A stretch of 64,000 nucleotides of DNA, taken from the NCBI RefSeq assembly GCF_003991155.1, contig NZ_CP031293.1; one strand, written 5' to 3'. Shown piece by piece: positions 21,095 to 53,253 of the stretch. The stretch's first letter is position 1. Each line of letters begins with the position of its first letter. Under the pieces are notes generated by a model. It ran no database searches, was not told the origin of the DNA, and was given only the letters and a program-made list of their open reading frames with translations. The position numbers and the translations under genes are program-made. This DNA comes from Escherichia coli. Lineage in GTDB: Bacteria > Pseudomonadota > Gammaproteobacteria > Enterobacterales > Enterobacteriaceae.

Positions 21095-21595
21095 AATTAA
21101 TTAATGTCATCAGGTCCGAAAATAACGAGAATAGTTCAGTCTCTCATCCTGTTGCGCTCCTGTCATGTGCATTGCTTCATATCATCACTGGCGCAAGGAG
21201 CGCGCAGGGGGCGGCCAGTCGCCGTCGCCCCCTGCACCCCCGGGCTCTGGCGAACAAAATCGCCGCTGCGCGGTACCCTCGGCTTATCCCTTGCTGCTAC
21301 CGGGTCGGGCGCGAGGTAACATATATGGACGCTCCCGGAATGCAATGCTTTCTTCAGTTATGTAATAAAACGGGTAGGTGCAGCCATATATCCGGTTTCT
21401 GATGGGATTTTTATCCCGAACCATGATGAAATCCGCCAGGCAGGTACCAATCATCCTCTACGGGCTAACTTGCCCTTGTTACCTCTCGGTGTATCCTGCC
21501 TGCGGTCTTACCTGTTTTGCCATCTTCTGAAGTCACCTGCACCTCCCAGGACGTTAACTTTTTTTCAGCACCTCGTCAGATTGACTGACCTTGTG

Positions 21596-22560
21596 TCAGG
21601 CGAGCTGCCGAGGTTGATATTCAGTATTGTGTGACAACATTGACCACATGATCCTCGCTGTTTTTGCCGCCATGGCGACAACAGCTACATTGTAGTGCTT
21701 CCGCTCAAGGAGTCCCTGAAGCCAGGAATTCTCCTCAACCGCGCCGTTTCGGTTGACCCAGGCGGTAAGTGCGCGTGCGCCGTGAACCAGCAGGTATCGG
21801 AAATATCCATCTCCACGTTTGCTGATCCCTCCCAGTTGCTGTTTCCCGCCGCTGGAATGTTCCTTTGGTGTCAGCCCCAGCCATGAAGCGAACTGCTTTG
21901 CGGTACTGAATTGTCGGGCATTACCCACTGCTGCTACCACATAAGTGGCCGTTAGCATGCCAACCCCCGGGATCTTGGCCATTCTCTGGCAGGCTTCCTG
22001 CGTTCTATACCAGGAGGCCAGAGCTTCTTCTACCTGTTTAACTTGTTCTTCAAGTTCCCGGATATGTTTAGACTGTCTGTAGATGCTGGTTCTGACAAAG
22101 GGAGATAAACCATTTTCGCCATCCTCCAGAATGGCTGGCAGCTCACGTGTTAAATGGCTTTGTCCGGCCGCAATCGTAATACCAAACTCAGCAAGTGTGG
22201 CTCTTAAACTATTGGCACAGGCAATCCGCTCACGGATAAGTATTCCCCGTTCAGTGTGTAACGCTAAAACGGCCTGCTGCTCTTCGGTTTTTATCTGAAC
22301 AAAACGCATATTCGGACGGGTTACCGCTTCGCAGATTGCTTCAGCATCTGCTGCATCCGTCTTGTTCGTTTTCACATAAGGCTTCACATACTGCGGAGGT
22401 ATGAGTTTTACCTCATGACCATAGCGGGTGAATAATCGCGCAAAATAATGACTGGATGAGCAGGCTTCCATGCCAATCAGACAAGGTTCCAGTTGAATCA
22501 CAAACTGAACAAACTTAGCCCGGGTGAGCTTTTTACGCAAAATAGTATGGCCTTCATGAT
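21596..22560 (-). pseudogene. IS110-family transposase, C-terminal ~320 codons (gene split by IS3 insertion)
   Basis: Matches IS1111/IS5075-type transposases (LIGMEACSSSHYF, VKTNKTDAADAEAICEA, LGGISKRGDGYFR). The first 16 residues of the ORF-track entry are read from the IS3 left inverted repeat and are artefactual. Confidence 0.8.
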
Positions 22561-23810
<1,250 letters not shown>

Positions 23811-23818
23811 CCACTACA

Positions 23819-23882
23819 GATCGACACCATGAAGCTGAAAAACGTTCTTTGCCAGGTCGATACCAAGAGTTGATACTTTCAT
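23819..23882 (-). pseudogene. IS110-family transposase, N-terminal 21 codons
   Basis: Minus-strand translation gives MKVSTLGIDLAKNVFQLHGVD, which joins in frame to HEGHTILRKK... once the IS3 and one GAT copy are removed. Confidence 0.75.
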
Positions 23883-24221
23883 GTGGACGCTCCTAATTTT
23901 TCAGGACGTATTGCAACGATCCAGTCTGGTACTTTGATACCGTAAAATCTGGAGCGTCCATCTCATTATCCCTGTAAAACGCGCCCTCAGCCCACATCCA
24001 TGTGGGCTGCCCCGCCCTTCAGGGAACGCCTCGGCGATTTTGACGCCACCAACACCGGTGCGGTTTGTAATTAAAGCGCAAGAACATCTTTAAATGAAAA
24101 CGAATACTCTACTGCTCCTTATGCATAACATTTCCTTTTAATTGCAACTTTACTCGTCCTTCCGCTTTCAGTAGTGTGTCATCGCGCATTTCGACTTCAT
24201 CTTTGCAAGGACTGGGTTTTC

Positions 24222-25121
24222 ATGTTTTCTGGGCTGTTAATCATTCTGGTTCCCCTGATTGTGGGTTACCTCATTCCGCTTCGCCAAAAAGCTGCATTAA
24301 GAGTTATTAATCAGCTATTAAGCTGGATGGTTTACCTTATTCTCTTTTTTATGGGTATCAGTCTGGCGTTTCTCGATAACCTCGCCAGTAACCTGTTGGC
24401 GATTCTGCATTATTCTGCTGTCAGTATTACCGTTATTTTACTGTGTAATATTGCCGCCCTGATGTGGCTGGAGCGCGGCCTGCCATGGCGCAACCACCAT
24501 CATCAAGAAAAACTCCCGTCGCGTATTGCGATGGCGCTGGAGTCGCTAAAACTGTGCGGCGTAGTAGTGATTGGTTTTGCCATTGGCCTGAGTGGACTGG
24601 CTTTCTTACAACATGCGACCGAAGCCAGTGAATACACCTTAATTCTGCTACTTTTCCTCGTCGGTATTCAGTTGCGCAATAATGGCATGACCTTAAAGCA
24701 GATTGTCCTTAATCGCCGGGGAATGATTGTCGCCGTGGTGGTGGTTGCCAGTTCATTAATTGGTGGTTTAATTAACGCCTTTATTCTTGATCTTCCCATC
24801 AATACCGCGCTGGCAATGGCCTCCGGTTTCGGCTGGTATTCTCTTTCCGGTATTTTATTGACCGAATCTTTTGGTCCGGTAATCGGGAGCGCGGCGTTTT
24901 TTAATGATCTGGCCCGTGAGCTGATTGCTATTATGTTGATCCCTGGGCTGATTCGCCGTAGCCGCTCGACTGCACTGGGCTTATGTGGTGCGACGTCGAT
25001 GGATTTCACCCTGCCCGTTCTTCAACGTACTGGCGGGCTGGATATGGTCCCGGCGGCGATTGTTCACGGTTTTATTCTTAGCCTGTTAGTGCCGATCCTC
25101 ATCGCCTTTTTCTCTGCATAA
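24222..25121 (+). CDS. lysO: lysine exporter LysO (YbjE)
   Basis: 299-aa membrane protein from MFSGLLIILVPLIVGYLIPL. Confidence 0.85.
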   Translation: MFSGLLIILVPLIVGYLIPLRQKAALRVINQLLSWMVYLILFFMGISLAFLDNLASNLLAILHYSAVSITVILLCNIAALMWLERGLPWRNHHHQEKLPSRIAMALESLKLCGVVVIGFAIGLSGLAFLQHATEASEYTLILLLFLVGIQLRNNGMTLKQIVLNRRGMIVAVVVVASSLIGGLINAFILDLPINTALAMASGFGWYSLSGILLTESFGPVIGSAAFFNDLARELIAIMLIPGLIRRSRSTALGLCGATSMDFTLPVLQRTGGLDMVPAAIVHGFILSLLVPILIAFFSA

Positions 25122-25154
25122 TACCTCTCTGGCGGTAGATCCCTGCCGCCAAAA

Positions 25155-25168
25155 TTGCGCTAAATCAA
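25155..25168. promoter_or_regulatory. FNR-like binding site upstream of hcp
   Basis: TTGCGCTAAATCAA resembles TTGAT-N4-ATCAA; an AT-rich palindrome-like NsrR-type sequence follows at ~25229-25250. Confidence 0.4.
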
Positions 25169-25264
25169 TCTCCCCTAAAGTTGCATTAAAAATCTCTTTT
25201 ATCCCCGCGTTAAGCGTCTTAACCTTAAACATGTATATTAAATATAACTTTAAAAGGTGTGATC

Positions 25265-26917
25265 ATGTTTTGTGTGCAATGTGAACAAACTATCCGTACT
25301 CCGGCAGGAAACGGCTGCTCATACGCGCAGGGGATGTGTGGTAAAACGGCGGAAACCTCTGACCTTCAGGATTTACTCATCGCGACGCTGCAAGGGCTTT
25401 CGGCCTGGGCAGTGAAAGCACGTGAATACGGCATCATCAACCACGATGTAGACAGCTTTGCGCCACGTGCCTTTTTCTCAACCCTGACCAACGTTAACTT
25501 CGATTCTCCGCGTATTGTCGGCTACGCTCGTGAAGCGATTGCCCTGCGCGAGGCGCTGAAAGCACAGTGCCTGGCTGTAGATGCCAACGCCCGCGTCGAT
25601 AACCCGATGGCTGACCTGCAACTGGTGAGTGACGATCTCGGCGAGCTGCAACGTCAGGCGGCGGAATTTACTCCCAATAAAGATAAAGCTGCGATTGGCG
25701 AAAACATTCTCGGCCTGCGTCTGCTGTGCCTGTATGGCCTGAAAGGTGCGGCGGCCTATATGGAACACGCACACGTTCTCGGTCAATACGACAACGATAT
25801 TTATGCCCAGTACCATAAAATCATGGCGTGGCTGGGGACCTGGCCTGCCGATATGAACGCGCTTCTTGAGTGTTCAATGGAAATCGGCCAGATGAACTTC
25901 AAAGTGATGAGCATTCTGGATGCAGGCGAAACCAGTAAATACGGTCACCCGACGCCAACCCAGGTCAACGTCAAAGCGACGGCAGGTAAATGCATTCTGA
26001 TTTCCGGTCACGATCTCAAAGATCTCTACAACCTGCTGGAACAGACCGAAGGCACGGGCGTTAATGTCTACACCCACGGTGAAATGCTGCCTGCGCATGG
26101 CTACCCGGAGCTGCGTAAATTCAAGCATCTGGTCGGTAACTACGGCAGCGGCTGGCAGAATCAGCAAGTGGAGTTCGCTCGTTTCCCTGGCCCCATCGTG
26201 ATGACCTCGAACTGCATCATCGACCCAACCGTAGGCGCTTATGACGATCGTATCTGGACCCGCAGCATCGTTGGCTGGCCGGGTGTGCGTCATCTGGATG
26301 GCGAAGATTTCTCTGCGGTCATCGCCCAGGCGCAACAGATGGCGGGCTTCCCGTACAGCGAAATTCCGCACCTGATCACCGTGGGCTTTGGTCGCCAGAC
26401 ACTGCTTGGCGCAGCCGATATGCTGATTGATCTGGTGAGCCGTGAAAAACTGCGTCATATCTTCCTGCTTGGCGGCTGTGACGGCGCACGCGGCGAGCGT
26501 CACTACTTCACCGATTTCGCCACCAGCGTGCCGGATGACTGCCTGATCCTGACCCTCGCTTGCGGTAAATATCGCTTTAATAAACTTGAGTTTGGCGATA
26601 TCGAAGGTCTGCCGCGTCTGGTAGATGCTGGTCAGTGTAACGATGCTTACTCAGCAATTATTCTGGCGGTAACGCTGGCAGAGAAACTGGGCTGCGGAGT
26701 CAACGATCTGCCGCTGTCGCTGGTGCTCTCCTGGTTTGAACAGAAAGCGATTGTCATTCTGCTGACGCTGCTTTCTCTGGGTGTGAAAAATATCGTCACC
26801 GGCCCGACTGCACCTGGTTTCCTGACACCAGACCTGCTGGCGGTGCTGAACGAGAAATTCGGCCTGCGTTCTATCACCACTGTTGAAGAAGACATGAAGC
26901 AACTGTTGAGCGCGTAA
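25265..26917 (+). CDS. hcp: hybrid-cluster protein / hydroxylamine reductase Hcp
   Basis: N-terminal Cys cluster MFCVQCEQT...GNGCSY...MCGK; 550 aa. Confidence 0.92.
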
Positions 26918-26928
26918 GGAGTTTGTCG

Positions 26929-27897
26929 ATGACGATGCCAACGAATCAATGCCCGTGGCGGATGCAGGTTCATCACATTACGCAAGAAACGCCGGATGTG
27001 TGGACGATTTCCCTGATTTGCCACGATTACTACCCATATCGCGCCGGGCAATATGCACTGGTCAGCGTGCGTAACTCAGCGGAAACGCTGCGTGCTTACA
27101 CCATTTCCTCCACGCCAGGCGTGAGTGAATACATTACCCTGACTGTGCGGCGGATTGATGACGGTGTCGGCTCCCAGTGGCTGACGCGCGATGTAAAACG
27201 CGGTGATTATCTCTGGCTTTCGGACGCGATGGGGGAATTTACCTGCGACGATAAAGCAGAAGATAAATTCCTGTTGCTGGCGGCAGGCTGCGGCGTTACG
27301 CCGATTATGTCGATGCGTCGCTGGCTGGCGAAGAACCGTCCACAGGCCGATGTGCAGGTGATCTACAACGTGCGTACGCCGCAGGATGTGATTTTCGCCG
27401 ATGAGTGGCGTAACTATCCGGTAACGCTGGTGGCGGAAAATAACGTTACCGAAGGCTTTATCGCTGGTCGTCTCACTCGCGAACTGCTGGCAGGTGTCCC
27501 TGATTTAGCCTCACGTACCGTGATGACCTGTGGCCCTGCTCCATATATGGATTGGGTAGAGCAGGAAGTGAAAGCGCTCGGCGTGACGCGTTTCTTTAAA
27601 GAGAAATTCTTCACCCCAGTAGCGGAAGCGGCGACCAGCGGTCTGAAATTCACCAAACTGCAACCGGCACGAGAATTTTACGCCCCGGTTGGCACCACGC
27701 TACTGGAGGCGCTGGAAAGCAATAACGTTCCGGTTGTCGCCGCCTGCCGTGCAGGTGTTTGCGGCTGCTGTAAGACAAAAGTGGTTTCCGGTGAATATAC
27801 GGTGAGCAGCACAATGACGCTGACCGACGCCGAAATCGCTGAAGGTTACGTGCTGGCCTGCTCCTGCCATCCGCAGGGAGATTTGGTTCTCGCATAA
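26929..27897 (+). CDS. hcr: NADH oxidoreductase Hcr (FAD plus 2Fe-2S)
   Basis: C-terminal ferredoxin motif CRAGVCGCCKTKV; 322 aa; 12 bp after hcp. Confidence 0.9.
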   Translation: MTMPTNQCPWRMQVHHITQETPDVWTISLICHDYYPYRAGQYALVSVRNSAETLRAYTISSTPGVSEYITLTVRRIDDGVGSQWLTRDVKRGDYLWLSDAMGEFTCDDKAEDKFLLLAAGCGVTPIMSMRRWLAKNRPQADVQVIYNVRTPQDVIFADEWRNYPVTLVAENNVTEGFIAGRLTRELLAGVPDLASRTVMTCGPAPYMDWVEQEVKALGVTRFFKEKFFTPVAEAATSGLKFTKLQPAREFYAPVGTTLLEALESNNVPVVAACRAGVCGCCKTKVVSGEYTVSSTMTLTDAEIAEGYVLACSCHPQGDLVLA

Positions 27898-28029: not shown

Positions 28030-29748
28030 ATGAAACAAACGGTTGCAGCTTATATCGCCAAAACACTCGAATCGGCAGGCGTGAAACGCATCTGGGGAGT
28101 CACGGGCGACTCTCTGAACGGTCTTAGTGACAGTCTTAATCGCATGGGCACCATCGAGTGGATGTCCACCCGCCATGAAGAAGTAGCGGCGTTTGCCGCT
28201 GGCGCTGAAGCACAACTTTCAGGAGAACTGGCGGTCTGTGCCGGATCGTGCGGCCCCGGCAACCTGCACTTAATCAACGGCCTGTTCGATTGCCACCGCA
28301 ATCACGTTCCGGTACTGGCGATTGCCGCTCATATTCCCTCCAGCGAAATTGGCAGCGGCTATTTCCAGGAAACCCACCCACAAGAGCTATTCCGCGAATG
28401 TAGTCACTATTGCGAGCTGGTTTCCAGCCCGGAGCAAATCCCACAAGTGCTGGCGATTGCCATGCGCAAAGCAGTGCTAAACCGTGGCGTTTCCGTTGTC
28501 GTGTTACCGGGCGACGTGGCGTTAAAACCTGCACCAGAAGGGGCAACTACCCACTGGTATCATGCGCCACAGCCAGTCGTGACGCCGGAAGAAGAAGAGT
28601 TACGCAAACTGGCGCAACTGCTGCGTTACTCCAGCAATATCGCCCTGATGTGCGGCAGTGGCTGCGCGGGGGCGCATAAAGAGTTAGTTGAGTTTGCCGG
28701 GAAAATTAAAGCGCCTATTGTTCATGCCCTGCGCGGTAAAGAGCATGTCGAATACGATAACCCGTATGATGTCGGAATGACGGGATTAATCGGCTTCTCG
28801 TCAGGTTTCCATACCATGATGAATGCCGATACGTTAGTGCTGCTCGGCACGCAATTTCCCTACCGCGCGTTCTACCCGACCGATGCCAAAATTATTCAGA
28901 TTGATATCAACCCAGCCAGCATCGGCGCGCATAGCAAGGTAGATATGGCGCTGGTCGGCGATATCAAATCAACCCTGCGGGCATTGCTGCCACTGGTGGA
29001 AGAAAAAACCGATCGCAAGTTTCTGGATAAAGCGCTGGAAGATTACCGCGACGCCCGCAAAGGGCTGGATGATTTAGCTAAACCGAGCGAGAAAGCCATT
29101 CACCCGCAATATCTGGCGCAGCAAATTAGTCATTTTGCCGCCGATGACGCCATCTTTACCTGTGACGTTGGTACGCCAACGGTGTGGGCGGCACGTTATC
29201 TGAAAATGAACGGCAAGCGTCGTCTGTTAGGTTCGTTTAACCACGGTTCGATGGCTAACGCCATGCCGCAGGCGCTGGGTGCGCAGGCAACCGAGCCGGA
29301 ACGTCAGGTGGTCGCCATGTGCGGCGATGGCGGTTTCAGTATGTTGATGGGCGATTTCCTCTCAGTAATGCAGATGAAATTGCCAGTGAAAATTATCGTC
29401 TTTAATAACAGCGTGCTGGGCTTTGTGGCGATGGAGATGAAAGCCGGAGGCTACCTGACAGACGGTACTGAGCTGCACGACACCAACTTTGCCCGCATTG
29501 CCGAAGCGTGCGGAATTACGGGTATTCGCGTGGAAAAAGCCTCTGAAGTCGATGAAGCCCTGCAACGCGCCTTTTCCATCGACGGTCCGGTGTTGGTGGA
29601 TGTGGTAGTAGCCAAAGAAGAGTTAGCCATTCCACCGCAGATCAAACTTGAACAGGCCAAAGGATTTAGCTTGTATATGTTGCGCGCAATCATCAGCGGA
29701 CGCGGTGATGAAGTGATCGAACTGGCGAAAACGAACTGGCTAAGGTAA
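28030..29748 (+). CDS. poxB: pyruvate oxidase (ubiquinone-dependent) PoxB
   Basis: 572-aa TPP enzyme, [30 protein letters not shown]. Confidence 0.92.
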
Positions 29749-50433: not shown

Positions 50434-50592
50434 ACGCTTCCCTCTGCAAAGTGAGCCTTCAGTCTAAAACTTTTCACTGTATTGTGTTTAACAGTTATAG
50501 CTTTTAGCAATTAATGCAACAGGTTAAACCTACTTTCAGCGAATACATTTTAGCGTGATCATTACAGGCATAAATCTATGAGGAGAGAAATA

Positions 50593-50850
50593 ATGCAAAC
50601 CGTTATTTTTGGTCGTCCGGGTTGCCCTTACTGTGTGCGTGCAAAAGATCTGGCTGAGAAATTGAGCAATGAACGCGATGATTTTCAGTATCAGTATGTA
50701 GATATTCGTGCGGAAGGGATCACTAAAGAAGATCTACAACAAAAGGCAGGTAAACCCGTAGAAACCGTGCCGCAGATTTTTGTCGATCAGCAACATATCG
50801 GCGGCTATACCGATTTTGCTGCATGGGTGAAAGAGAATCTGGACGCCTGA
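50593..50850 (+). CDS. grxA: glutaredoxin 1
   Basis: CPYC active site; 85 aa from MQTVIFGRPGCPYCVRAK. Confidence 0.92.
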   Translation: MQTVIFGRPGCPYCVRAKDLAEKLSNERDDFQYQYVDIRAEGITKEDLQQKAGKPVETVPQIFVDQQHIGGYTDFAAWVKENLDA

Positions 50851-53212: not shown

Positions 53213-53253
53213 AACTGAAGTTGCCCTGAAAATGAAATTTTTTTGCACAACCG

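Follow-up and report, generated by a model that had tools for sequence, protein, structure and literature searches.

The intergenic region between lysO and hcp on this Escherichia coli chromosome raises the question of whether two sequences within it, which resemble binding sites for FNR and NsrR, control the hcp-hcr operon as their counterparts do in strain K-12. In the window, by which is meant the whole 64,000-nucleotide stretch of DNA that was analyzed, positions 25122-25264 correspond exactly to this intergenic region, extending from the first base past the lysO TAA to the last base before the hcp ATG at 25265. Over bases 25000-25400, strain 2016C-3878 showed 100% identity in its chromosome, and 5,424 of 5,426 complete E. 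coli genomes gave a match; K-12 MG1655 was 98.3% identical to the same 401-base query. The K-12 promoter (Filenko 2005, 2007; for FNR, Myers 2013; for NsrR, Partridge 2009, Mehta 2015) occupies the same locus with the same gene order, lysO-hcp-hcr-poxB, and contains an identical FNR box, NsrR 11-1-11 operator, and NarL/NarP-like element, with both their spacing and their distances to the ATG unchanged. Only three intergenic bases differ from MG1655 (window/K-12: 25175 C/T, 25187 T/G, and 25195 T/C), all of which fall between the FNR box and the -35 region, and two of which (25187 and 25195) lie within an auxiliary NsrR-like site. The T at 25187 is common to the window and strain CFT073. We consider it very likely that this region is the E. 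coli hcp-hcr control region and that it works as already described for K-12.

Table 1. Positions of features in and around the lysO-hcp intergenic region, with mean identity to the window among 78 other Enterobacteriaceae species where determined
Feature	Position in window	Strand	Basis	Mean identity
lysO (L-lysine exporter, formerly ybjE), TAA stop	25119-25121	+	ORF list and K-12 annotation	
NarL/NarP-like 7-2-7 element TACCTCT-CT-GGCGGTA	25122-25137, centre 25129.5 (-104.5 if the start is 25234)	+	Consensus match	86%
Stem-loop UGGCGGUAG-AUCC-CUGCCGCCA, just past the lysO stop	25130-25151	+	RNA fold and covariation; overlaps right NarL heptamer	
FNR box TTGCGCTAAATCAA	25155-25168, centre 25161.5 (-72.5)		Matrix rank 2, K-12 identity, published ChIP-seq site, conservation	99.1%
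Second NsrR-like site AAGTTGCATTAAAAATCTCTTTT	25178-25200, ~-56 to -34		hcp-excluded NsrR matrix	74%
-35 region TTTTAT, weak	~25197-25202	+	Predicted from 25234 start	
Spacer	25201-25227			56%
Putative -10 hexamer TAACCT (T, A, and final T conserved)	25220-25225	+	Predicted from 25234 start	
NsrR 11-1-11 operator AACATGTATATTAAATATAACTT	25228-25250, ~-6 to +17		Matrix rank 1, published CFT073 site, conservation	95.9%
Predicted hcp transcription start	25234, ~+/-1 nt	+	Computed from FNR box centre 25161.5 and published -72.5	
Shine-Dalgarno-like AAGGTG, 5 nt before ATG	25254-25259	+	Read from sequence	
hcp coding sequence (hybrid cluster protein)	25265-26917	+	ORF list and RefSeq annotation of matching K-12 and other E. 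coli records	
hcr	26929-27897	+	ORF list and K-12 annotation	
poxB	28030-29748	+	ORF list and K-12 annotation	

The FNR box, which the initial annotation had placed at exactly the position given in Table 1 as an FNR-like half-site pair, agrees with the consensus TTGAT-N4-ATCAA at 8 of the 10 specified bases. When up to two mismatches were allowed, the window contained 34 matches to this consensus where 33 would be expected, which is not above chance. A weight matrix was also compiled from the 61 ChIP-seq-bound K-12 sites of Table S6 of Myers 2013 (PMC3688515), minus those of hcp and aqpZ/ybjD. With this matrix, the box ranked second among the ∼64,000 window positions, and its score of 12.8 was within the range of the training sites. 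In shuffled sequence, ∼1.6 matches as good would be expected per 64 kb, or ∼0.004 per 143-bp interval. The FNR box alone is therefore weak evidence in 64 kb and is convincing only in combination with its position, its conservation, and its published occupancy. The hcp site listed in Table S6 of Myers 2013, TTGATTTAGCGCAA, is the reverse complement of the window box; it was ChIP-seq-positive and had a PatSer ln(P) of -11.6, relative to a threshold of -10.75 (PMC3688515). Table 1 of the same study, citing Filenko 2005, classes hcp-hcr as an operon activated directly by FNR and puts its FNR site at -72.5. Both FNR occupancy and FNR-dependent expression were thus published for K-12 and, given the sequence identity, would be expected to carry over to the strain from which the window derives.

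The highest-scoring match to the FNR matrix in the window, GTGATTTGAGTCAA at 43050-43063, had a score of 14.3, above that of the hcp box. The FNR site reported in Myers 2013 between aqpZ and ybjD of K-12 (TTGATTTAGGGCAA) was searched for throughout the window, and no match was found anywhere. Between the aqpZ side and lysO, the window contains ∼2.6 kb without a K-12 counterpart (21323-23967), which includes an IS110-family transposase ORF on the - strand (21596..22609) and an IS3-type integrase-core ORF on the + strand (23064..23810). Assignment of the latter ORF as aqpZ was considered and rejected, as it encodes the integrase of an insertion element.

An AT-rich palindrome at ∼25229-25250 had been proposed as an NsrR operator. 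The operator was indeed present there, one base wider than described, as two 11-bp halves that are symmetrical at 7 of 11 positions. When scored with a matrix derived from the remaining 25 sites of Table 4 of Mehta 2015 (PMC5320621), hcp being left out, it ranked first in the window with a score of 26.0, compared with a training median of 20.1. No dinucleotide shuffle of the window (0 of 200) reached this score, and the NsrR site is distinguishable from chance on its own score. For hcp, that table gives AAGTTATATTTAATATACATGTT, the reverse complement of 25228-25250, with an ln(P) of -23.87 relative to a cut-off of -14.28; among the 11-1-11 NsrR sites of CFT073, hcp thereby comes second, behind only ytfE (PMC5320621). 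In that strain, the hcp site lies under an NsrR ChIP-seq peak that reaches its summit 22 bp before the start codon of hcp, and nitrate (as a source of nitrate-derived NO) raised hcp 44-fold (PMC5320621). The NsrR motif itself was first predicted from this element, which is conserved in the hcp regions of enterobacteria and lies downstream of the FNR site there (Rodionov 2005, PMC1274295), and the hcp promoter serves in the literature as an NsrR-dependent NO reporter (Phcp::lacZ). Weight-matrix scanning, which had been suggested as a check on both motifs, hence placed each of them high in the window even with hcp-excluded matrices, and the published scores for both pass their thresholds. The other suggested check, comparison with the K-12 promoter, showed neither motif in a different position.

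The hcp operator resembles those of other NsrR-repressed genes of E. coli, namely ytfE, hmp, ygbA, and yeaR-yoaG, in being a AAGATGCATTT-type inverted repeat with the 11-1-11 arrangement, positioned over the core promoter. It is richer in AT than these, with TGTAT/TATAA in place of TGCAT. A further difference from ytfE is that the hcp promoter needs FNR too and hence is silent in air even without NsrR. The third and fourth NsrR-matrix matches in the window were AAGTTGCCCTGAAAATGAAATTT at 53218-53240 (score of 17.0) and ACATTTCCTTTTAATTGCAACTT at 24128-24150 (score of 15.9), the latter preceding the annotated start of lysO by ∼70 bp. Both scores are inside the range of published NsrR sites.

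To place these sites in an evolutionary context, the hcp locus was collected from 80 species representatives of the Enterobacteriaceae with Hcp proteins 89-99% identical, of which 78 were aligned over 170 bp upstream of hcp. The mean identities to the window (Table 1) were highest for the two principal operators. Measured from centre to centre, the FNR and NsrR sites were 77.5 bp apart in 76 of 79 sequences, and the remaining 3 had a separation of 76.5 bp; the distance from the NsrR operator to the ATG was variable in the same set, ranging from 24 to 35 bp. Fixed spacing of this kind is the pattern expected if the activator needs both a fixed face of the DNA and a fixed distance relative to the core promoter that is covered by the repressor. 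The non-consensus half of the FNR box, TTGCG (25155-25159), was kept in all but 2 of the 78 other species. The exceptions were two Superficieibacter genomes with TTGAG, in which the consensus A is found at the fourth base, and the fifth base was restored to consensus in none. That a non-consensus half-site is retained nearly everywhere suggests selection for a sub-optimal activator site or, alternatively, an overlapping constraint.

The hcp transcription start was placed at 25234 because the centre of the FNR box is at 25161.5 and its published position is -72.5; the start is thus carried over from K-12 by secondary citation (Myers 2013, PMC3688515, citing Filenko 2005). From this start, TAACCT is the likely -10 hexamer in the window, with some uncertainty as to the exact hexamer. 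The sequences TAA.CT and CTTAAAC were kept across species, and the bases at 25201-25219 were variable. In most other genera, the sequence aligned with 25218-25223, two bases upstream of the assigned -10, is CATAAC or CATAAT, and CATAAT is the better -10 candidate in most of these. The AGGTG of the Shine-Dalgarno-like sequence was conserved in nearly all of the species aligned. A promoter and terminator scan of 25000-25400 found no σ70 consensus promoter, which fits with dependence on an activator. At class I promoters of the CRP/FNR family, the activator is centred near -61.5, -72.5, -82.5, or -92.5. The hcp promoter is similar to these in the published -72.5 position of its box, a weak core, and a distance from activator to core that is strictly conserved across species. 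Most FNR-activated promoters in Table 1 of Myers 2013 are of class II (-41.5), and hcp is among the few with an upstream site (PMC3688515). The same study noted no σ70 ChIP signal at hcp and mentioned a σE site (PMC3688515). The sigma factor at hcp is accordingly not beyond question; NsrR repression in the nitrate-free medium used in Myers 2013 would explain the missing signal too.

These features can be brought together in the following model. Without oxygen, an FNR dimer would bind TTGCGCTAAATCAA, 72.5 bp upstream of the start, and recruit RNA polymerase to a core promoter that would be too weak to fire without FNR; its position suggests that activation is by a class I mechanism. Holo-NsrR, with its iron-sulfur cluster intact, would occupy 25228-25250 and so cover the -10 end, the start, and the first 17 transcribed bases, a placement from which occlusion of the polymerase would be predicted. 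It is established that NO inactivates NsrR through the iron-sulfur cluster. Damage to the cluster by NO would release the repressor, and the operon would be switched on only when oxygen is missing and NO is present.

Three further features of the region did not figure in the initial annotation: a NarL/NarP-like element, a hairpin past the lysO stop, and a second NsrR-like site. Upstream of the FNR box, TACCTCT-CT-GGCGGTA agrees with the NarL/NarP consensus TACYYMT-NN-AKRRGTA at 12 of 14 specified positions, a level of agreement that is not above chance (6 occurrences in the window vs 2.5 expected). The centre of this element is 32 bp upstream of that of the FNR box, which would put it at -104.5, the position reported for the hcp NarL/NarP site (Filenko 2005, Chismon 2010). 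At this location the element would probably add stimulation by nitrate and nitrite; Rodionov 2005 cites NarL/NarP dependence of the induction of hcp by these ions (PMC1274295). The identity of 86% among species is partly explained by an overlapping hairpin, the stem-loop just past the lysO stop.

The stem-loop had a predicted RNA folding energy of -16.5 kcal/mol (z = -4.1), and none of 200 shuffles was as stable. In the alignment of 79 sequences, counted as 77 distinct rows, pairing was seen in 95.6% of the stem cells. One stem pair varied among U-G (44), U-A (27), and C-G (5), and another among G-C (66), A-U (3), G-U (3), and C-G (2). The U-G pairs are possible on the + strand only, which indicates that the hairpin belongs to + strand RNA, that is, to the lysO transcript. 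The hairpin is followed by AAAAUUGCG, so that the U-tract of an intrinsic terminator is missing at 25130-25151, and the scan of 25000-25400 returned no terminator; a permissive Rfam scan of 24900-25500 matched no RNA family. The structure is probably a 3′ hairpin of the lysO transcript, as judged from fold and covariation. Despite the missing U-tract, it may define the 3′ end or have a stabilizing or insulating role, probably marking where the lysO transcript finishes and shielding the hcp promoter from read-through.

The second NsrR-like site, located between the FNR box and the -35 region, was the second-ranking window match to the NsrR matrix that leaves out hcp; its score was 19.9, and 0.015 such matches would be expected by chance. 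Its left half (25178-25188) is strong and its right half weak (rank 221). Table 2 of Mehta 2015 names the half-site AAGTTGCATTA, which scored 13.2 relative to 9.8 for the K-12 version, as one that NsrR may use at hcp (PMC5320621). This weaker and evolutionarily variable site may reinforce repression. One could go further and propose that, in this particular allele, repression leans substantially on 25178-25200 in addition to the operator at the start site, resulting in a quantitative difference from regulation in K-12. The two base differences from K-12 that fall within the site do lift its matrix score from 18.0 to 19.9, its half-site is the higher-scoring version, and just 80 of the 5,426 complete E. 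coli genomes carry the exact window allele of 25150-25230. The score gap between the two alleles is small, however, and only one half of the site is strong. Moreover, the site scored highly in Kluyvera (22.9), Trabulsiella (25.8), and Entomohabitans (24.7) but is absent or degenerate in many genera, including Salmonella (3.9) and Enterobacter (<0), and hence is unnecessary for the conserved regulation. On balance, substantial reliance of this allele on the upstream site appears unlikely, and 25178-25200 is at most an optional reinforcement of repression.

Taken jointly, the auxiliary operator at 25178-25200 and the conserved lysO 3′ hairpin might constitute two under-described layers of this control region, a reading to which we give only tentative credence. 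If it is true, the auxiliary site could tune the tightness of hcp repression or the amount of NO needed for induction, and the hairpin, some of whose bases also belong to the NarL/NarP site, would link the point where lysO transcription finishes with the upstream activator region of hcp. Either feature may already be covered in the promoter literature (Chismon 2010).

An insertion was observed in another strain, E. coli O169:H41 strain 2014EL-1345-2 (NZ_CP024223.1, locus 1832-2944), in which IS421 (IS4-like) lies inside the hcp promoter. The insertion point is equivalent to window position ∼25196 and leaves the FNR box on one side of the element, with the core promoter and NsrR operator on the other; therefore, regulation of hcp-hcr is probably disrupted in that strain.

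The conservation of 25228-25250 itself might have a cause other than NsrR, with NsrR binding being secondary: another regulator might be responsible, such as a different Rrf2-family protein (e.g. IscR), OxyR, or a nucleoid protein, or the sequence might be a feature of the hcp 5′ UTR. Because approximately +1 to +17 of the mRNA fall within the operator, conservation could be exerted through the RNA, and OxyR reportedly also influences hcp (Almeida 2006, Seth 2012), which would favor the involvement of another regulator. Set against this, the sequence is the top NsrR-matrix match in the window and lies under an NsrR ChIP-seq peak (PMC5320621), and Rfam revealed no RNA family at the hcp 5′ region. 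The best intergenic match to the OxyR consensus agreed at 11 of 20 positions, and 180 positions of the window attained that score; as this match is not distinctive, an OxyR site in the intergenic region was neither located nor excluded by it. Conservation mainly for a reason other than NsrR is thus highly improbable.

By far the best OxyR match in the window was ATAGCTTTTAGCAATTAATGCAACAGGTTAAACCTAC at 50497-50533, which agreed with the tetrameric consensus at 17 of 20 positions and ends 45 bp upstream of a glutaredoxin-1-like ORF (50578..50850). It is presumably the known grxA OxyR operator.

That the FNR and NsrR matches are chance similarities in AT-rich intergenic DNA to which neither protein binds would agree with the unexceptional frequencies of FNR consensus and matrix matches but is effectively refuted, as the same sequences are ChIP-seq-bound in K-12 and CFT073 (PMC3688515, PMC5320621), are 96-99% conserved in 78 species where the flanking spacer falls to 56%, include an NsrR operator whose score no shuffle reached, and are held at an essentially fixed spacing.

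The preferred reading remains that of an hcp-hcr control region of the K-12 type. The anaerobic and nitrosative-stress control through a conserved architecture that the initial annotation envisaged is supported by the published FNR and NsrR data together with conservation across the 78 species. The operators of the hcp promoter are real, strongly conserved, and already known in detail, and in this sense the region is ordinary and has little significance beyond annotation. What is left consists of small leads, namely the NsrR-like site that varies between alleles and genera and the lysO hairpin lying partly over the NarL/NarP element; the allele differences at 25178-25200 provide a small but testable lead on strain-level tuning of responses to NO. 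With its hcp-hcr control region intact, the window strain should show anaerobic induction of the operon under nitrosative stress as expected for K-12, and the logic of Phcp-type NO reporters should apply to it. For the family, the hcp region offers a clean example of phylogenetic footprinting, in which two operators and the spacing between them are frozen family-wide while the DNA between them drifts.
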